A DNA stretch of 43,578 nucleotides from a virus (taxonomy: Duplodnaviria; Caudoviricetes), in IMG/VR virus record IMGVR_UViG_3300048851_000038, positions 1-43,578 of that record; one strand, 5' to 3'. The notes under the pieces are model-generated. The model was not told the DNA's origin and ran no database searches. It worked only from the letters and a program-made list of their open reading frames with translations. Made by a program: the position numbers and the translations under genes. Of this stretch, positions 1 to 11,042 are shown piece after piece (the stretch's first letter is position 1; every line of letters begins with the position of its first letter).

Positions 1-560
1 TGCTACGTAAGTAAATGTCCGAGGGTGGCGCGGTCGCACCAGGCACAAGCTTGGGTCGCTTGTGGGCGCCGCGCCCGGTCCGAACTCCCTTTGGCGCGCG
101 CGGCGCTCACTTTCTCAAAAAGTTGGCTCGTTGGGTATTGTCATCGGCCGGCGCGTCGAAGAACCGGGACCGACGATCCGGCTCGCCGGAATCGAGGTTC
201 ACACCGGGCGCCCCATTCCCCCATTGTCCGTCAACAATCCGGAGTGGGGTGCTTCCCGCATGTGTAAATTGGCTCTTGTCTCGTCGGATTAAGCGCACGA
301 AACTCTCCGCGCGGGCCAAGCCCAGCGCCTTTCAGGCACCCCGGCCCGTAACAGGGGAGGCGTCGCGTCAGGTATCCCCCCGGCGCGGCGCCTCTTCCAC
401 CAATTGGGCGGATTGCGGGTCGCCAGTTTGGGCCTCCGGGGCCGCGGATCTGCGATCCGCATCTTTTTCCCGTTGCGGAACTTACCTTTCCGCTCCGTCT
501 AGGTATCGGCGCCTCGTCCCTCCCCCTTGTCCGTCAACAAATAGGGGCGGGGCGTTCCAA
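1..560. ncRNA. Candidate large structured non-coding RNA (probably truncated by the window edge)
   Basis: No credible ORF. Many adjacent hairpins (e.g. 206-254, 357-394, 508-556). The 14-nt TTGTCCGTCAACAA occurs at 224-237 and 527-540, each capping a 14-bp stem of different sequence. Strand unresolved. Confidence 0.5.
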
Positions 561-869
561 TCAACGGCTTTCTTCGACAACTGCGAGCGGATCGCCAGAG
601 CGACCACTAGGCGCATCAGCGGGCCGTGCGTCGGCAAGTTGCGCCGACTGCTGGCTGATCGTCTTCGCATCTTCCACGACGCGTGCACCGTCGATCGCCT
701 TGAGCACTGCGTTGCCGGTGATCGTCACCAGGCCGCCGAACAGCGTGTCGACCATCCGCTGATTGTCAGCAGGAACGGCGTGGAAGACGACGGCCATGCC
801 GAGTGCGAACGACGCAAGGATCAGCATGGCGGCGAGGGCGTAACGCCAGTGGCGGTCTGCATCGGTCAC
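561..869 (-). CDS. Holin-like membrane protein (2 predicted TM segments)
   Basis: 102 aa with two hydrophobic stretches (YALAAMLILASFALGMAVVF; TLFGGLVTITGNAVL). Last gene of the late operon, start overlapping the upstream stop. Confidence 0.55.
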   Translation of the reverse strand: MTDADRHWRYALAAMLILASFALGMAVVFHAVPADNQRMVDTLFGGLVTITGNAVLKAIDGARVVEDAKTISQQSAQLADARPADAPSGRSGDPLAVVEESR

Positions 870-2077: not shown

Positions 2078-2174
2078 GAGTCTTCCTTTCTTGTGAGAAC
2101 CGGACTTTTGATGGTGGCTGCGTTGCGACCGCGCTGACGACGGAGAGGTGCGAGGCGCACACACGGCGCGACGT

Positions 2175-5100
2175 TCATCCCGTCAGCCAGGACGTCGCGT
2201 AGTTGTAGTTGCCCCCGAACATGTTGTTCGCGCGGACGCTGAAGTTGAAAAGCCGCTTGGCGCCGTTGTTGACGAACGTATAGCCGACAACATCCGCCTG
2301 CCCGGGCTCGTTGATGCCAACATAGCTGCCGGCACCTTCGGTCAGAAAGGTCTGACCGCTGTCGCCCGCCCCGCCCCAGATCTGCGCCTTGAGTTCGCCG
2401 TTGGCCTGGGCCTGCTGAACGCCAACGGAGGCGGAGAAGGTGATACCCTCGCCGGTGGCGAGCATCTTGGAGATGGTCCCGCCGATACCGACCGTCTGGA
2501 CCGTCTTCCCGGTCCCGATCTCAGTGGCACCGTAGTAAACCTTGCCATCGGTGCCGAGCGCGAAGCGGCTGTTCCCCACCGTCTCCGAACCGACCGCCAC
2601 AGAGTTGGGGCCATACCACATGACCATGTTGCTCTGCGGGCCAAGCCCCGCGCCTTCCACCAGCCGATAGCCGTTGCTTACGAAAGACAGCCGACCCGAA
2701 TTGAGATCGACGTCATTGGCATTCACCTTGCCGCGGACACGGACTTCACCGTTGGCGATCTCCAGAACGCGGTTCGACCCGATATAGACCGCGTCAGCGG
2801 CAAGCTCGATCGCCGACGCGCGAACACCCGGTGAGCTTTCGGCGTACATGGAGAGGCGCGCAACACTGGTGCCCGCCTGAACCGTGTTCTGCAGATATGC
2901 ACGGGTGCGCTCATCGATGTCGGAAACAGCGCCAGCCATCTGCGTGACGCTTGCGATCTGGCCGGTGATAACGTCTGCCGTCGGCCCCGACTGGAATGCG
3001 TTCCACTCGGTCTGACCCTGCCGGGCGGCACCGAAGTACGCGCGCCACAACCACATATAGCTGTCAGCACTGCCGTTATAGGTGTCATACTTACGGGCAT
3101 GGATGTGGCAGAAAGCAGCGTTGCTTGGCGACCGCACATCGAGACGACCCACGCGTTTGTAGTTGTTCGGCGAACGGCCGGATGGTGCATCAGCTCCCCC
3201 GCGTCCCGACCATTCGACGCCAAGATAGTTGCTGTTGCCATCGAACCATTCAACAAGGGTCTCAACGTCGCAGCGATGCGCGAAGAGATCCATATAGAAC
3301 TGATACCAAGTGTTCCCTGACACCGGGATGCGCGAGCTATAGAACCCGAAGTGGGGATCGCCGGCGCCGACACGACCTGTCTGGCGAGCATAGAACACCC
3401 GCTGCCCTGGGATGTACCAATCAGCCGTCGGACCATTGACGGCTCGCTCAGGAACGTTGGGAGCGTTGCTGCTCCAGTATTGACCCCAACCCTGCCAGTC
3501 GTTCACCCACTCGGTGTTTGGCACGAGATTACCGCCGCGCAAGCCATACTGTGCCGACAGCGTTGCGCTGGTCTGCGCCGCTGCAGCATTCTGGCTGGCG
3601 AGTACCTGGCTATCGCTTGCCGCCTTGGCGTAGCTCTTGGCGCTGTCGGAGCGGGCACCGGTGGCATAGTCGGCAGCGATCCCTGCCTGCGTCATAGCCG
3701 TCGATGCGCTGCCGCTGGCGGCATCGCGCGAAGCTGCTGCCTCATTACGGAAGGTCTCAGCCTGCCCCCGTGCAGTCTCGGCGGCACCGCGATGCGTGTT
3801 GGCCGTCGAAGCACTCGTGCCGGCTTCACCGGCCTTGGTTGAGGCCGTGGATGCCGACCCCTGTGCGGCGCTAGCAAAGCCATCAGCTTGTCCGCGCGCC
3901 GTTGCAGCCAAGCCAGCCTGGGTGCTCGCGGTTGAGGCGCTGCCAGCGGCGTTGGTCTCGCTCGTTGCCGCGCGGCCCGCAGCGCTCTCGGCATTGCTTT
4001 TTGCGGTCTCGGCATTGTTCTTTGCCGTCGTGGCCGTGTTGGCGGCAGTGCCGGCCTCGCTCGCCTTGGTATTGGCCGTGTCTGCGCTGGTCGCAGCAGC
4101 AGTTGCCGATGCCTTAGCGGCTTCGCTGTCGGTCACGTCTTCGATGTATATCGAGCGGACGCGAACGTCGTGGCCGGCAGCGCCGCCTGGGCCGTCCGAT
4201 ACGATAATTGGACGGTATTCTACCGTGTCTGCCGGCAGGGTGATGTCGACGGTAGTGTTGCGATAAACAGTCGATCCCGCCGGTGCGATGTTGCCGACAG
4301 GATAGTTCGACGTTCCTGCCGCGTTACGCGTTTGGACGCCTGCAAAAAGAGCAAACGAACCCGGCGCGCGGCCCTGCACCGTCACCCGGAGCTTGCGGGC
4401 ACCGACGATCGGGCGGAAAGCAGTCTCAAAGCTATCCCTATTCGTGGCACGGATAGCGCCGACACCAGCGTCGAGCAGATATGCAGCCGCGCCGGCCCAA
4501 GTGCCGATGCTACCATCAGCGAACGTGCCCTTCGCGACGAGGTTGCGGGCTGCGAAGCTGGCAGCCGCATCTCGCGACGATGCCGCAACACCCGCGCTGA
4601 TTGATGCCGCACTCGATGAGCCAGCGGCGTTCTCTGCCGACGTAGCTGCCTGATTACGAAAGCCTTCGGCCTGTCCCCGTGCAGTCTCGGCAGCATCCTT
4701 GGCTGTCGAGGATGCCGACGCAGCCGTCTCTGCATTGGTCTTGGCCGTGCTGGCCGTGCTGGCGCTGGTCGAAGCTGCCGACGCCGACGCCTGTGCCGCC
4801 ATGGCTTCGGTCACATCCGTCACCGTGAGGCGGCGGAACTGGATCGTCATCGTCGAGGTGGCAGTGTTCTGCGCCTGAATGAACGGGCGGAGGAACAGCG
4901 TTCCTGCGGGCCATGACGCCACGTTCAGCGCCGGCTGTGCCACGTCGGAGATCAGCGCCGTGAGCTTCTGCACCGAGTTGTTCGGGACAGCGCTGGGTGC
5001 GGCACCGGCACCAACGCCCGTGCCAAGGCTTGCGTAGGCCGCGTTCATGGCGCGCCACGCCAGATAAATCGTCGGCGTGCCCGTAAAGGCGGTGGTCTGG

Positions 5101-8100
5101 AACTCGGCTTCAACCTTGTAGATGCGCCCCGGAACGGCCGGCTGAACTGCACGGGTGGAGAAATCTGCGCGCGAGCTGGCCGCCGTCAGAACTTCCTGTC
5201 GCACCGGGCCATAACCCGTCGCGGTGGCGTTGCTGGGATAGTCGGCAACGGTTGCAGGATCGCCGATGCTGTTACCCAAGAAGAACTGGCCACCGCTCTC
5301 GTAGCGGTCCGGGAACAGCTTGGCCGCGGCCAGATTGGCCGAACCCGCGCTGGTTGCCGACACACTCGCGCTGCTCGCCGCCGAGTTCTTGTGGCCTTCT
5401 GCTGTCGAGGCGGAGGTCGCCGCCTCTCCCGCCTTTGTGCTTGCCTCACCAGCCTTGGTAGAAGCGGTGTTGGCATGGCCCGATGCCACCGAGGCGCTCT
5501 GCGATGCTGCGTCAGCCTTCGTTGACGCAGTCGAGGCGGAACCCTGCGCGGCAGTGGCGAAACCGTCCGCCTGATTGCGGGCGGTGGTGGACAACCCTGC
5601 CTGGGTTGTCGCCGTCGTTGCACTCGTATCGGCGTTGCCTGCACTGGTCGCAGCATTCGAGGCGTACGTCTGCGCCTGCCCGCGAGCCGTCTCGGCCAAC
5701 CCGCGTTGCGAGGATGCAGTCTCCGCACTGGTGCCAGCCTCACCGGCTTTCGTGGACGCCGTGGCAGCGCTGGTCTGCGCAGCGGTAGCCGAACCTTCTG
5801 CCGCCAGCATCGCCGTGACATCACGGATCGTCATCACCTTAAGGCGGCTCTGGTTTGCTACAGTCGTGTAGTTCAGCAGGGCGCCGAAGCGGACGAAAGC
5901 ATTGTCCGCGGCGGAAGCAACTTGTGATGCCAGAATACCCGGAGCCGTAGGCGGCAATACCCCAAGTCCGAACCGGACAACGACACGGGTCGTCTGCCCC
6001 GGCGCGCACGCCGTGAAGATGTACCGCTCCCCGACAGTAGATGCACCGTAGCTGGCGTTCAGCGCGCGTGCATAGGGTGAAGCCGTAGGGGCAGCAAAAC
6101 CGTTGTCGTCAACAGCGACCTCGATCGCGACTTCATAAATCTTGCCCAGCTGCCACGGAACAACACTCTTATAGAGCGCAACGGCAGTCGAGCCTGCGGG
6201 CGGCGAATAGACGCCGTTGACGACTTGCGCCGCAGGAAGATTGGCGCGCGTTTCGGGTGCGCCAACAATGCCCGTGCTTGGGGTCAGTAAGTCTGCCTTG
6301 ATGACATCAGGCATCGTCGCAATCGCCGCCGACAACGCCGACTGGTAGCTGGAGGTGGCGATCCCTGCTTGCGTGGCGGCCGTGGAGGCATGACCCGATG
6401 CCGTGTCACGCGACGAAGCCGCCTCGTTGCGATACGTCTCGGCGAGACCCTTGGCCGTCTCGGCGGCGGTCTTGGCCGTGGTCGCGGCAGATGCAGCCGT
6501 CTCCGCATTGGTCTTGGCCGTCGAGGCCGTCGAGGCGCTGGTAGCAGCGGCCGACGCTGATCCTGCCGCGCCCGTGCTCTCGGTTACGTCGGTCACGGTG
6601 ATGCGGCGAATACGCACCGTCATCGACGTGGGGCCGACCAACTGGAGGCGGGCATACGGACGCAGCCATACGGTCTCGACAGGCCACGGCGAACCGAGCG
6701 TCGAGGGCGCGGCGGAGAACAGCCGTGATACCGTCTTCGGCGCCGCGTCCACGCCAGTGATGGGGAACGACGCGCCAACCGCCGTGATGTTCGTGTAGTT
6801 GGCGTTGAGTATTCGCATGTTCACGGCGAGGGCGTTCGAGCCAGATGTCGGCGATCCCACCATCGCCAGCGTCTGGTATTCGACCTCCATCTTGTAGATG
6901 CGGCCAGGGACCGGGGCGAGAACCCCCATCAAAGCAGTGTCTACGTTGGCGGCAGCCGTGGTTGCCGTTACGTCGATGACGGGGCCATACCCCGTCTCGG
7001 TGGCGTTGGAAGGAAGCGCAGTAGCCGGCGATGCGGTAGGCGCGCCATACAACGACCCTTGGAAGATAGCCGATCCCGTTGCGTCATACCGCTCCGGCAG
7101 CAAGTTGATACGGGCAAGCTGCGCGGCGCTCGCGCTATTAGCCGCCACGCCCGCGCTGGTCGATGCCGAGTTCTTGTGCCCCTCTGCCGTCGAAGCCGAC
7201 GTGGCCGCATTCGACGCGAACGTGCTGGCTTCACCTGCCTTGGTCGTAGCGGTGTTGGCCGACGCGGTGGCGCTGCTCGCGCTCTGCTCGGCTTCACTGG
7301 CCTTGGACGATGCCGTCGAGGCGGAACCCTGCGCCGCGCTGGCAAAGCCATCAGCCTGATTGCGGGCGGTCGTCGAAAGACCGGCTTGGGTGGTTGCCGT
7401 GTTGGCGCTGCCAAGCGCGCTGTCCGCCGACGTTGCAGCGTTGCTGGCATAGGTCTGCGCCTGCCCGCGCGCGGTCTCGGCGTTCGTTGCCGCCGTCGTC
7501 GCGACAGTCGCCTTCTGGCCGGCGGTGTCCGCGCTCGTCGAAGCCGCACTAGCGGAGATCACGGCCGCCGCCGCCGAGCCCTGCGCTGCAAGCATTGCCG
7601 TAACATCACGCACCGTCATGAGCTTGAGACGGCTCTGTTGCGCCGCGTTGGTGTAGTTGATCAACACGCCAAAGCGAGCGAACACCGTACCCGCAGCGCG
7701 CGTCATCTGACGTGCAACAATGCCGGTGGCGGCTGGCGGCAGCACGTCCATGCCGAAACGCGTCACCATGCGCGTGGTCTGGCCGACCGGCGTCGTCGTG
7801 AGCGTATGATAATCCGTCGAGCCGCCGAACACGTCAGTAAGCTGACGGGCATAAGGCGAGGCCGAGGGCGCAGGCGTCAGATCACTCTGATCGACCGCAA
7901 ACTCGGTCGTCACTTCATAGATCTTGCCGCTCTCCCAAGGGACATACCCCTTGTAAGCGAGAACGCGAGACGCGCCCGCCGGCGGTGACACCACACCGTT
8001 TACAACCCATCCTGCCGGGAGATCCGGGCGGCTTTCGGGGGTGCCCACAATGGAAATGGCCAGAGTATCTGCCTGCAGCGTGTCCGGCATCATGGCGATA

Positions 8101-11042
8101 GCCGTCGCCTTCGCTGCCGAGTAGCTCGACGCGGCATTCAGAGCCGACGTGTTCGCTGCCGTCGCGCTATTGCCTGCGTCCGTCGCCTTGGTGCCTGCCG
8201 TGCTCGCACTGCCAGCCGCTGCCGTGGCGCTGCCTCCGGCGGCCGTTGCACTGCCTGCTGCCAACCCCGCCTGGGTCGTCGCCGTTGAGGCGTGACCGGC
8301 GGCGGTCTGCGACGACGAGGCAGCGTTGGTCTCGCTGGTCTTGGCATTGCCTGCCGACGTGCCCGCGTTCGTTTCGCTGGTCTTGGCAGCAGACGCGCTC
8401 GTCCCTGCTTCGCCCGCCTTGGTCGAAGCGGCCGACGCGCTGGTCGAGGCAGCGGTAGCCGAACTATCGGCCGCCATCTGTGCTTCAACGTCCTCAATGT
8501 AGAGAAGCGCGATTTCTTCCGGCGTGCCCGACGTGCGGAACATGACCCGCATGAATGCAGCGGTGGCCGGGATGGCATACGCGCCCCCGGCAGTGGTAGG
8601 GGCAAGAACACGGCTCTGCTCCTGCCATCCTGCTGCTACCGTGACAGCGGACCCGGTAACGTTGGAGAGCTGGCCCCCATTGATATATGCGCCGCTTGCA
8701 TCGAAGAAATAGACGTAAAGCGCATGTCCGTTTGCCTGCGCTCCATCTTCCGTCAGTCGCCACCGTACCACGGGGCGATAACGCCGTCCCGGTTGGACCG
8801 ACATAAGTCCTACCGGATGGATGTGCGTCACCGTGGTTCCGACAACCAGATTGCCCGTGGCGGTGTAGCTGAACTGCCCTGTGCCAGGCGCCACCGGCAA
8901 ACGAAGCGTAGGCGCGAAGGTGTTCTGCTGATTATAGCCCCACGACGATGGCGAGGCGCCCGGCGAGCGGTTGCCCGTCAGCGCAGCGCCAGCGGCGTCC
9001 TTGGCCGAAGATGCGGCGACCACCGCAGAGGCACTGGACTGCGAAGCCGACGTGCCAGCCTCCCCTGCCTTAGCGATTGCCGTGTCGCGTGCGGTATTGG
9101 CGAGTGAGAGCGCCGACTGCGCGTCCGTCTTGGCCTGATCGGACAGATTCTTGGCGGCAACCGCGGCGTCGCGCGCCGTCTCCGCGCCAGTGCGGGCCGT
9201 CTCCGCGGCCCCCTTGGCGGTGTTGGTCAGCCCCAATGCTGCCTGCGCGGCATCGCGCGCGTTCTGCGCGTCGTTTCGAGCGGTCGTTGTGACGTCACGC
9301 GCCGTGGTCGAGACGCTCGCTGCCGCCTCGGCGGCGCCCTTGGCGTTCTGAGCCAGCGTCTGCGCCGCCTGCGAGGCGTCCCGCGCCGCCTGCGAATCGG
9401 TCTTCGCAGTCTGCGACAAGCTGTTGGCCAGCTCGGCGTTCGTCTCGTGCTCGGCGGCGGCGTCGCGCGCCGCGGCGGCGTCGATCGCGCTCTGCGCGGC
9501 GCTGACCGTCTCGCCATATGTCTCGAACAAACCGTCGATATCGGCTTTCGCATCGTCGACCTGTTTGAGCAGATCCACGGCGGGCTTGCCGCCGACAGCG
9601 TTCGTATCCTTGGACGTGTTCTCGCCGGTGACGTCGGCATTGTCCTGCGGCTTCGTGCCGGTCGGATCGGCGATGTCGTTCCACGAAGGCACCGACGACA
9701 GCAAAGACCAGAACCCGTTCTCGGTTGCCGGCGGCGCTGGTGGCGCGTTGCCGGCGCCGGGTGTCGTGTTGATGTAGAGCCAGGACGAGCCTTGAAACTC
9801 AACGATGTTGCCTTCGCGGTACGTCTCAGCGGCGACGTAATCACCGCGCGGGACGAGTGGCGCGGCGAAAGCAATCTCGTCCATCCCGTGCGCGCGCCAG
9901 CACCGCGCGCCGCGCATTTCGATGCGCCAGTAGGGCGGCGAGACGTTCACCTCTTGGTTCGCCAGTACAGGCGGGAGGCGCCGGCCCTGCGCGTCGAGCG
10001 TGATCGAGGGCGAGGGGATCGCGCCGAACCGGATCACTCGAAGTTTGCCGGTCCAGTCGACGATCGCTTGCGCGTTGCATGCTTGCGCTAGGGGCTGGAC
10101 CATCTGCAGCAACGTGGTCGACGAGGTCAGGTAAAGGTTGATCGGATGAGGTACGGCCGTGTCGAGAGCGGCCATGCTGCTCGCATCTACGCGTGCTGGA
10201 TCCACCGCCGCCAAGGCGCACATGCGGGTGATCACCGCCGCGGTCGACCGCACGAAGCCGTTGGCATTATCGCCGTCCGCATCGATCGTGATCAGGCCGG
10301 CGGGCGGCGCGCCAAGACGGAACATGCCCTGCGCCAGACAGGTGCCAAAGGAACCTTCGGGAATGCTGGCAGCAACCAGTGCGCCATAGTTGGCGAAATC
10401 ACCGATGTTCTTGCCGCCGGCGTCGATCAAGCTCGCGGCACGCTCGTAAATCGCGGTAACAGCGCGGATCGAGCCGTAGCCATGCACCTGATAGACGAGG
10501 TTCACCGCATCGATCTGCACAGGCTCGATGTTGCGCGCGCGGCCGAAAAGCGCCGGCTTGGGCTTGTCTTTCAGGCTTTCGCCGCCCTCTGCCGCCCCGG
10601 TGCCGGCATATCGCCGGTTGAGCAGATCCGCTTCGAACGGCTCACCGTCCACCTGCGCTGAGAAGGTGTAGCGGCCGTTCTCATCGGTGCCGTAATCGTT
10701 GACGAGCCCGGTAAAGATCTCGCGCCAGGCGCTCCAGGGTTCGCCCGGTTCGCCCTGCCAGATCCTGAGCGGCGCGCCCGCCCAGCGATAGGCGGGGCTG
10801 CGCTGATCCAGCTTGCGGAGGGCGACCGGGTCGATCTGCGCCGAGGCGCTGGCGAGGGTAGCAGAGCTGGCGAAGCTGCCGTCCCAGCCGTCTAGGCGCA
10901 GGGTAGGGGGCGCCACGACGCCCGGCCACCAGCGCTGACCGTTCAGACCGGTGACGCGGCTGTCATCATGCGCCGATACGCGCAGCGCCTTCCTCGTCCC
11001 GCTCGTTGGATCGAGAGGGGAGATCTCCAACACGATTGCCAT
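2175..11042 (-). CDS. Giant modular tail-tip / host-specificity (receptor-binding) protein, 2955 aa
   Basis: Follows the tape measure gene directly. N-terminal globular region, then Ala/Ser/Thr-rich stalks alternating with seven beta-rich domains of about 140-175 aa, then a C-terminal region reminiscent of host-specificity protein J tails. Confidence 0.85.
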   Translation of the reverse strand: MAIVLEISPLDPTSGTRKALRVSAHDDSRVTGLNGQRWWPGVVAPPTLRLDGWDGSFASSATLASASAQIDPVALRKLDQRSPAYRWAGAPLRIWQGEPGEPWSAWREIFTGLVNDYGTDENGRYTFSAQVDGEPFEADLLNRRYAGTGAAEGGESLKDKPKPALFGRARNIEPVQIDAVNLVYQVHGYGSIRAVTAIYERAASLIDAGGKNIGDFANYGALVAASIPEGSFGTCLAQGMFRLGAPPAGLITIDADGDNANGFVRSTAAVITRMCALAAVDPARVDASSMAALDTAVPHPINLYLTSSTTLLQMVQPLAQACNAQAIVDWTGKLRVIRFGAIPSPSITLDAQGRRLPPVLANQEVNVSPPYWRIEMRGARCWRAHGMDEIAFAAPLVPRGDYVAAETYREGNIVEFQGSSWLYINTTPGAGNAPPAPPATENGFWSLLSSVPSWNDIADPTGTKPQDNADVTGENTSKDTNAVGGKPAVDLLKQVDDAKADIDGLFETYGETVSAAQSAIDAAAARDAAAEHETNAELANSLSQTAKTDSQAARDASQAAQTLAQNAKGAAEAAASVSTTARDVTTTARNDAQNARDAAQAALGLTNTAKGAAETARTGAETARDAAVAAKNLSDQAKTDAQSALSLANTARDTAIAKAGEAGTSASQSSASAVVAASSAKDAAGAALTGNRSPGASPSSWGYNQQNTFAPTLRLPVAPGTGQFSYTATGNLVVGTTVTHIHPVGLMSVQPGRRYRPVVRWRLTEDGAQANGHALYVYFFDASGAYINGGQLSNVTGSAVTVAAGWQEQSRVLAPTTAGGAYAIPATAAFMRVMFRTSGTPEEIALLYIEDVEAQMAADSSATAASTSASAASTKAGEAGTSASAAKTSETNAGTSAGNAKTSETNAASSSQTAAGHASTATTQAGLAAGSATAAGGSATAAAGSASTAGTKATDAGNSATAANTSALNAASSYSAAKATAIAMMPDTLQADTLAISIVGTPESRPDLPAGWVVNGVVSPPAGASRVLAYKGYVPWESGKIYEVTTEFAVDQSDLTPAPSASPYARQLTDVFGGSTDYHTLTTTPVGQTTRMVTRFGMDVLPPAATGIVARQMTRAAGTVFARFGVLINYTNAAQQSRLKLMTVRDVTAMLAAQGSAAAAVISASAASTSADTAGQKATVATTAATNAETARGQAQTYASNAATSADSALGSANTATTQAGLSTTARNQADGFASAAQGSASTASSKASEAEQSASSATASANTATTKAGEASTFASNAATSASTAEGHKNSASTSAGVAANSASAAQLARINLLPERYDATGSAIFQGSLYGAPTASPATALPSNATETGYGPVIDVTATTAAANVDTALMGVLAPVPGRIYKMEVEYQTLAMVGSPTSGSNALAVNMRILNANYTNITAVGASFPITGVDAAPKTVSRLFSAAPSTLGSPWPVETVWLRPYARLQLVGPTSMTVRIRRITVTDVTESTGAAGSASAAATSASTASTAKTNAETAASAATTAKTAAETAKGLAETYRNEAASSRDTASGHASTAATQAGIATSSYQSALSAAIATMPDVIKADLLTPSTGIVGAPETRANLPAAQVVNGVYSPPAGSTAVALYKSVVPWQLGKIYEVAIEVAVDDNGFAAPTASPYARALNASYGASTVGERYIFTACAPGQTTRVVVRFGLGVLPPTAPGILASQVASAADNAFVRFGALLNYTTVANQSRLKVMTIRDVTAMLAAEGSATAAQTSAATASTKAGEAGTSAETASSQRGLAETARGQAQTYASNAATSAGNADTSATTATTQAGLSTTARNQADGFATAAQGSASTASTKADAASQSASVASGHANTASTKAGEASTKAGEAATSASTAEGHKNSAASSASVSATSAGSANLAAAKLFPDRYESGGQFFLGNSIGDPATVADYPSNATATGYGPVRQEVLTAASSRADFSTRAVQPAVPGRIYKVEAEFQTTAFTGTPTIYLAWRAMNAAYASLGTGVGAGAAPSAVPNNSVQKLTALISDVAQPALNVASWPAGTLFLRPFIQAQNTATSTMTIQFRRLTVTDVTEAMAAQASASAASTSASTASTAKTNAETAASASSTAKDAAETARGQAEGFRNQAATSAENAAGSSSAASISAGVAASSRDAAASFAARNLVAKGTFADGSIGTWAGAAAYLLDAGVGAIRATNRDSFETAFRPIVGARKLRVTVQGRAPGSFALFAGVQTRNAAGTSNYPVGNIAPAGSTVYRNTTVDITLPADTVEYRPIIVSDGPGGAAGHDVRVRSIYIEDVTDSEAAKASATAAATSADTANTKASEAGTAANTATTAKNNAETAKSNAESAAGRAATSETNAAGSASTASTQAGLAATARGQADGFASAAQGSASTASTKAGEAGTSASTANTHRGAAETARGQAETFRNEAAASRDAASGSASTAMTQAGIAADYATGARSDSAKSYAKAASDSQVLASQNAAAAQTSATLSAQYGLRGGNLVPNTEWVNDWQGWGQYWSSNAPNVPERAVNGPTADWYIPGQRVFYARQTGRVGAGDPHFGFYSSRIPVSGNTWYQFYMDLFAHRCDVETLVEWFDGNSNYLGVEWSGRGGADAPSGRSPNNYKRVGRLDVRSPSNAAFCHIHARKYDTYNGSADSYMWLWRAYFGAARQGQTEWNAFQSGPTADVITGQIASVTQMAGAVSDIDERTRAYLQNTVQAGTSVARLSMYAESSPGVRASAIELAADAVYIGSNRVLEIANGEVRVRGKVNANDVDLNSGRLSFVSNGYRLVEGAGLGPQSNMVMWYGPNSVAVGSETVGNSRFALGTDGKVYYGATEIGTGKTVQTVGIGGTISKMLATGEGITFSASVGVQQAQANGELKAQIWGGAGDSGQTFLTEGAGSYVGINEPGQADVVGYTFVNNGAKRLFNFSVRANNMFGGNYNYATSWLTG
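4810..8093 (-). repeat. Internal tandem duplication (domain B-stalk-domain C) x2 within the tail-tip gene
   Basis: MPDTLQAD...LKLMTVRDVT resembles MPDVIKAD...LKVMTIRDVT; LLPERYD...RRITVTDVT resembles LFPDRYE...RRLTVTDVT. Stalks are near-identical (ARGQAQTYASNAATSA...TTQAGLSTTARNQADGFA). Confidence 0.8.

Follow-up and report, generated by a model that had tools for sequence, protein, structure and literature searches.

Candidate trans-acting small-RNA cassettes in the holin-endolysin spacer of a temperate phage related to Sphingomonas prophages

What does a temperate phage keep in more than half a kilobase of hairpin-rich DNA next to its holin gene? We took up this question for a virus record of 43,578 nt (IMGVR_UViG_3300048851_000038), analyzed here at its full length and referred to as the window. 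The window is the whole record of a temperate phage whose late genes lie on the - strand and whose integrase adjoins a tRNA-Gly at the right end. At the left end, positions 1-560 come directly after the stop codon of a gene for a 102-aa membrane protein (561..869, - strand), which we call holin-like from its hydrophobic segments and its position before endolysins, a search for protein families having returned no significant match. By this gene the nearest relatives are Sphingomonas prophages, and the nearest genomic copy (88%) belongs to locus L123 within genome G002. A preliminary description had read 1-560 as a candidate single large RNA at the end of the late/lysis operon, comparable to GOLLD or ROOL, and had left its strand unresolved. 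To our knowledge, nearly all known prophage small RNAs (sRNAs) come from enterobacteria, and what they target is usually difficult to determine.

The region proved to lie inside the lysis module, and the operon does not end with it. Logan contigs from run X1 (316 nt) and run X2 (744 nt) overhang position 1 and run 16 nt past it into the start codon (ATG) of a gene that is ~83-84% like the TIGR02594 gene of L123 over 107-180 nt. Compared with L123, records of equal length and depth align from the endolysin ATG onward and carry, in front of it, the window's first bases plus 16 more letters. Because these contigs bridge position 1 to the endolysin ATG, the region is a holin-endolysin spacer of 576 nt in all, of which 1..560 falls in the window; the remaining 16 nt, which include the endolysin ribosome-binding site, fall to its left. 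TIGR02594 is described as a putative endolysin in the accessible part of one report (PMC5418858). In L123, L124 and L125, the holin-like gene is likewise followed by a spacer and then by a TIGR02594, phage-lysozyme or GH19 gene. One holin family (L123, L124, L125, L229-L237) is joined to at least three endolysin families, so the swap point is at the spacer.

One other IMG/VR record, L001, carries 1-560 at 96.6% identity. It has a different integrase and tRNA and is unlike the window throughout the DNA upstream of the holin; as the two also agree letter for letter where the holin gene ends, the high identity may reflect recent recombination. Both records stop on one base, 16 nt short of the endolysin start. 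This common end base suggested an att site or a physical end, a reading that was rejected, since the base is unrepeated in the window and contigs cross it. The common end is probably database trimming, and both records are therefore without their endolysin; IMG/VR trimming can hide the next gene.

That 1-560 is non-coding, as first described, was borne out by its relatives. The 350-aa + frame at 15-1067 is shifted in L001 by 1-nt indels near 128, 223 and 376, and the small ORFs change frame or sequence in homologues (by inspection). The accompanying remark that other gaps are much shorter holds for 15 of the 16 late-gene gaps listed, which measure at most 98 nt, the other being an 876-nt interval that did not resolve into genes. 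The hairpins reported at 44-64, 62-110, 206-254, 357-394, 444-460, 475-493 and 508-556 are present in the sequence, and on either strand the region has a better fold than its dinucleotide-shuffled versions (z=-4.12 on the + strand and z=-2.81 on the - strand, with 0/100 shuffles as good in either case). At the Rfam gathering threshold, a tRNA alone passes in the window; at E<=10, positions 1-600 yield eight sub-threshold matches, none of them GOLLD or ROOL (6C scores 23 vs 47 bits and ar7 16 vs 60), and 12 homologous loci yield none. Searches with blastn gave one chance match among GenBank phages (E=0.6) and eight short matches among plasmids (E 0.1-0.5, none accepted). Pattern scans of IMG/VR gave, among the matches listed, only L001's record or chance matches (the 14-mer scan covered 12/64 parts). 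Related soil contigs hold pieces over most of 1-560 at ~85-97% identity. Of the two options offered earlier for a structured RNA, one co-transcribed with the late genes and one antisense to them, the second is supported, for an RNA new to Rfam.

The strand can now be assigned with some confidence, since folding energy, wobble pairs and homologues all favor +. The strand antisense to the late genes has the lower folding energy in 10/10 spacers, and its z-score is lower in eight of the ten, equal in one and slightly higher in one. Stem imperfections are mostly G.T on the + strand, as had been noticed from the letters, and the stems of the antisense strand hold 29 G.T vs 10 C.A pairs (p=0.003, counted with L001 left out and over rows that are related and not independent). 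The covariation proposed as a check was also found, in model families built on 4-8 sequences. For the hairpin type that we call A, the helix is 99% paired over eight rows, one a near duplicate and another (L178) with a misaligned loop; 3/13 pairs are changed on both sides, and 0/500 shuffles reach the covariation score. For type B, whose members were partly found by a model holding the loop, 6/18 predicted pairs are changed on both sides, and the loop core is invariant in 6/6.

Four long GC stems, ~140-160 nt apart, divide the spacer into cassettes, each of which is likely a separate small RNA of ~80-90 nt on the + strand. Cassette B (33..113, +), with its main hairpin at 62-110, is a predicted sRNA of ~80 nt; the seed at 81-92 is the exact 12-nt complement of the Shine-Dalgarno region of the host target described below, and the presumed 5' end is placed from a promoter-like motif with its CTTG immediately to the left of position 1. 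Cassette A2 (173..257, +; predicted ~85 nt) consists of a 5' hairpin, a conserved CGAGG linker and then the main hairpin at 206-254. Its seed at 224-233 is complementary over 10 nt to the site immediately before the same Shine-Dalgarno, and its presumed 5' end is set from ATTG at 137. Cassette D (311..397, +; predicted ~87 nt, presumed 5' end set from CTTG at 275) has its main hairpin with a C-rich loop at 357-394; D also occurs in the L123 prophage spacer and has no match to the A/B target. Cassette A1 (471..558, +; E=2.8e-5) bears a second copy of the A hairpin at 508-556, with its seed at 527-536, so that the A module is duplicated inside 1-560; A1 lies directly after the holin stop and showed no clean promoter motif. 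Between D and A1 lies an optional segment, E (400..470, +), with a terminator-like hairpin at 444-460 that scores as a terminator and a T run; in a variant from run X1, 17 other letters stand in place of 403-471. In type A, conservation extends beyond the main hairpin to the 5' hairpin and the CGAGG linker, and the A seed is partly paired within a short inner stem. The main hairpins end in only 2-3 T and are not canonical terminators. Pairing of the B loop with the CGAGG linker in a pseudoknot was considered and dropped, because L160 breaks it on the + strand (by inspection).

Outside the spacer, a weak A-like hairpin of uncertain membership lies at 2126..2205 (+; E=0.0075), in a 97-nt gap after a tail-protein stop. 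It does not cluster with type A; it has the loop core of A and a CTTG at 2090, and may be a further cassette.

A motif suggestive of a promoter precedes most cassettes. CTTG stands 50-90 nt upstream of 18/26 cassettes (2000 shuffles: mean 4.5, maximum 12; opposite strand: 2), over a range that was chosen after looking and among cassettes that are related. After it, at sigma-70 spacing, A occupies -11 in 12/18 and T occupies -7 in 9/18, and -12 is never T in 18/18. Three of the CTTG matches fall within the preceding hairpin, and near the endolysin CTTG is also the complement of bases flanking the endolysin ribosome-binding site. A sigma-70 consensus scan of 1-1500 found no promoter, and we regard the motif as suggestive only. 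Beside cassettes at three loci lie CRP-type palindromes (TGTGA-N6-TCAC; L123 6466, L127 1622, L160 2624), which may regulate cassette promoters; none is found in the window at 1-900.

The relatives show how these units travel. A profile search with the holin found 11 matches in 7/401 genomes, of which three repeat L123-L125, two stop at a contig edge and one, the weak match L233, is without a spacer. The remaining five (L229, L230, L231, L235 and L237) carry 1-4 hairpin units in spacers of 110-431 nt, followed by ORFs called endolysin by eye, not by HMM. Altogether, eight other spacers of this holin family measure 101-431 nt and hold 1-4 main hairpins each. Unit types are common to several phages in varying number and order, and clusters of them span phages and chromosomes. 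Away from phages, modules of types A and B also occur at L160, L161, L148 (two A, one B), L178, L127 and L166. These six chromosomal loci have unrelated neighbors and no remnant of the holin or another window protein; B lies 5' of A in 4/6. A weak holin-like tblastn match at L161 (E=0.04) is absent with the profile. Chromosomal copies of A or B are found in only three genomes among the 151-401 searched.

Homologues of 1-560 thus keep modules only and never the whole. Because module types are exchanged and reordered, and because 403-471 is replaceable, we read the spacer as a cassette array and not as one fold. The single GOLLD/ROOL-like RNA first proposed gives way for these reasons, and because A is duplicated and related phages build their 101-431-nt spacers from other modules; a long structured gap in a prophage can turn out to be an array of small RNAs.

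Several searches for further relatives or other kinds of element ended in rejection. A loose B pattern matched 114/401 genomes, no more than its control, and four candidates taken from it were discarded; the metagenome matches L159 and L162, two of four, are due to chance. Model R2 matched 13 genomes, of which only G002 and G004 were accepted after eight matches had been viewed. The A 14-mer occurs in 6/301 genomes at 1-2 copies, near control level and far from the high copy number of REP- or MITE-like elements. Integron attC cassettes carry RYYYAAC...GTTRRRY ends and are linked to an integron integrase; here the 3' arms are without GTT (by inspection), and the window integrase is phage-type and beside a tRNA. 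A type I toxin-antitoxin or leader peptide was rejected since no conserved small ORF lies opposite the RNA.

What would such RNAs act on? In three cassette-bearing genomes, the complement of the B loop stands before an ATG 15 times, vs 5 for the control, one of the 15 being the B cassette itself. Two genes are matched in all three genomes, a 17-18-aa ORF and the gene of a 75-81-aa protein. The leader of the latter also contains, directly upstream of the B site, a complement of the A loop that had been no part of the search; the chance of finding it there is ~2.8e-4 by a Markov estimate. The joint 20-21-nt A+B site occurs in 4/141 genomes (control 0), one of them G002, home of the L123 holin; two of the four are new, and an orthologous gene follows the site each time. 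The exact site is missing from 137/141 genomes, a set that does not include the window's own host. Window B matches the target leader over 12 nt, and A1 and A2 match it over 10 nt. All three loops pair with it more strongly than with 44/44 background leaders, a small background against targets that the seeds themselves define. For D, which is without a target, 31/44 background leaders pair as well. A conserved seed complementary to a conserved site over the ribosome-binding site, one feature of trans-acting base-pairing sRNAs, is present for A and B and not for D. Searched alone before start codons, A gave nine matches in 3/5 genomes and no gene common to the cassette-bearing genomes; one of the nine is a MucR-like gene (by eye). 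No seed match falls at a phage start codon.

The predicted target in G002 follows genes for a UDP-GlcNAc 2-epimerase, a UDP-sugar dehydrogenase and a metallophosphoesterase, with a divergent nucleotidyl transferase. We take these upstream genes to be wecB/wecC-like and to make a ManNAcA-type surface glycan. The product is a predicted membrane protein of 80 aa with 87 unnamed homologues, for which no family was found; the ESM Atlas gives YjbE as a neighbor (0.81, 13% of members), a lead only. CsrA might otherwise explain the paired GGA motifs in the leader; it (PF02599) was not found in 5/5 target-bearing genomes, which may be incomplete, and the controls were matched in 3/14. The 17-18-aa ORF is a second candidate target: at L257, L258 and L259 (G002, G156 and G004) it is hydrophobic, and its ribosome-binding site is complementary to the B loop. 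At L127 (1450-1960), the predicted target gene has a paralogue with a chromosomal B cassette immediately before it; the leader of this paralogue has no pairing with A or B.

On balance, we lean toward the view that the cassettes are genes of trans-acting sRNAs, placed antisense in the lysis module, of which A and B would occlude the ribosome-binding site of the target. Each would be transcribed from its own weak sigma-70-type promoter (CTTG, a 17-nt spacer and A at -11), and a lysogen would produce the RNAs with its late operon switched off, as their antisense placement inside the lysis module would permit. The loop would pair with the host leader and stop ribosome loading, and the long stem would protect the RNA 3' end. 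The target may affect a surface glycan, and we speculate that its repression would hide the phage receptor or alter biofilm. For such a benefit we can point to the gene neighborhood and to the prophage sRNA svsR, which, in the accessible part of its report (PMC12803456), sets a precedent for this purpose. Read this way, the letters alone show two unrelated-looking loops converging on a single ribosome-binding site of the host, and both the RNAs and an as yet unnamed family of host proteins are therefore directly testable.

A broader proposal, which we hold tentatively, is that the Sphingomonas holin-endolysin spacer is, in temperate phages, a swappable arsenal of self-contained sRNA cassettes, each with its guide loop, which phages and host chromosomes would gain, lose, duplicate and pass between them; three of those in the window would be aimed at the ribosome-binding site of a small host protein linked to surface glycan and would block superinfection. 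As a searchable cargo site, the spacer stores other cassette types as well. The L235, L229 and L230 spacers (G307 and G010) hold a second cassette superfamily with a common stem, at least three loop types and up to four units; for the unit-1 loop of L235 and L229, no target common to the genomes searched was found. Locus L148 (3810-4020, in G156) has ~160 nt of extra structured-looking sequence between B and A that may be another cassette.

The position of the spacer invites a reading in terms of lysis itself, with a long antisense RNA or hairpins in the late mRNA delaying endolysin relative to holin. The position is kept in 8/9 other holin loci with readable downstream DNA, and phage PAK_P4 is reported to have a ~550-nt cis antisense RNA at its endolysin gene (PMC12197685, accessible part). 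Such control is nonetheless unlikely here: on the mRNA the predicted B start (~33) comes upstream of the ribosome-binding site of the endolysin, which B would leave uncovered, A and B are kept, with covarying stems, at the six chromosomal loci, and the loops match a host leader and no phage start codon. Nor do we give much credence to a sponge, in which loops of the late mRNA would copy the host leader, titrate a host A/B sRNA during lytic growth and de-repress the target. Host chromosomes do carry A and B, the sense strand holds the target sequence by construction, and prophage anti-sRNAs such as AgvB are described as acting in this manner (PMC4104026, accessible part). Against this, the sense strand forms the less stable stems, the promoter-like motif belongs to the antisense strand, the phage cassettes are built like the chromosomal copies, which have no late transcript, and those copies are confined to the three genomes mentioned.

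It is equally improbable, in our judgment, that the hairpins are stacked terminator-like elements that stop antisense transcription, or functionless leftovers, multiplied by duplication. The single hairpin after the stop codon that makes up the L124, L125, L230 and L231 spacers would suit this, as would the terminator score of 444-460 and the duplication of A within the window; terminator loops, however, are not expected to be fixed. In this case two different loops correspond to neighboring stretches of a single host leader, and A keeps its 5' hairpin and linker as well. One large ornate RNA of the GOLLD/ROOL type, despite the whole-region z-score and the pieces spread over most of 1-560 in soil contigs, is very improbable given the lack of an Rfam match, the modules found alone and in other orders and numbers, the 69 replaceable internal nucleotides and the fact that no conserved long-range pairing was found.

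The array of sRNA genes that we favor fails the defining features of the groups it most resembles. GOLLD and ROOL are prophage-borne and structured, with one conserved fold over their full 500-800 nt; the array is similar in total length, but it is modular. The 6C RNA gave only the weak Rfam match mentioned above. AgvB and AsxR are prophage "anti-sRNAs" of EHEC lambdoid phages that bind sRNAs (PMC4104026), a type marked by binding Hfq and antagonizing a host sRNA, and Pas sRNA genes adjoin the holin/lysozyme operon and vary in copy number (bioRxiv 10.64898/2026.05.13.724894). As far as the accessible parts of these two reports go, all three are, like the cassettes, short RNAs in related, non-identical groups at a fixed late/lysis cargo site, convergent to late transcription; here, too, the cargo is variable, and its site is holin-endolysin and not after PR'. 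They are 51-60 nt long, with a variable 5' seed on a shared ~42-nt 3' scaffold, and lie after PR' ahead of the lysis genes, whereas the cassettes depart from that build, with a predicted 80-90 nt, a seed carried in the terminal hairpin's loop, stacks of up to four cassettes, an mRNA leader as predicted target and an alphaproteobacterial host.

svsR of prophage NC-SV likewise lowers a host surface function and limits other phages; it is a single RNA at the 3' end of cI for which the accessible part of the report gives no base-pairing target (PMC12803456), whereas the cassettes, known from their letters, have an evident complementary site. The cuckoo/CcsR (alpha-r14) RNAs of Alphaproteobacteria share modular GC-rich hairpins, C-rich anti-Shine-Dalgarno loops, clustering and covarying stems with the cassettes and, by the accessible account, repeat the loop motif CCUCCUCCC in 2-4 adjacent hairpins joined by <=10 nt (PMC4615179). 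In the window, CCUCCUCCC is absent, the loops differ between cassettes, and the linkers are 90-115 nt. PAK_P4as15 is the ~550-nt antisense RNA at a phage endolysin gene cited above; cis action on endolysin translation is proposed for it, and the accessible text describes no cassettes or host target (PMC12197685). The literature, supplements aside, yielded neither sRNA arrays between holin and endolysin nor the A, B or D RNAs; Sphingomonad sRNA catalogues could list chromosomal A/B.

Two further features of the phage deserve mention. A MucR/Ros family regulator (PF05443; 41415-42041, + strand) adjoins the integrase and is a possible silencing or counter-silencing factor. The tail protein of 2955 aa (2175-11042, - strand) is encoded with long internal repeats ~1.7-1.8 kb apart.
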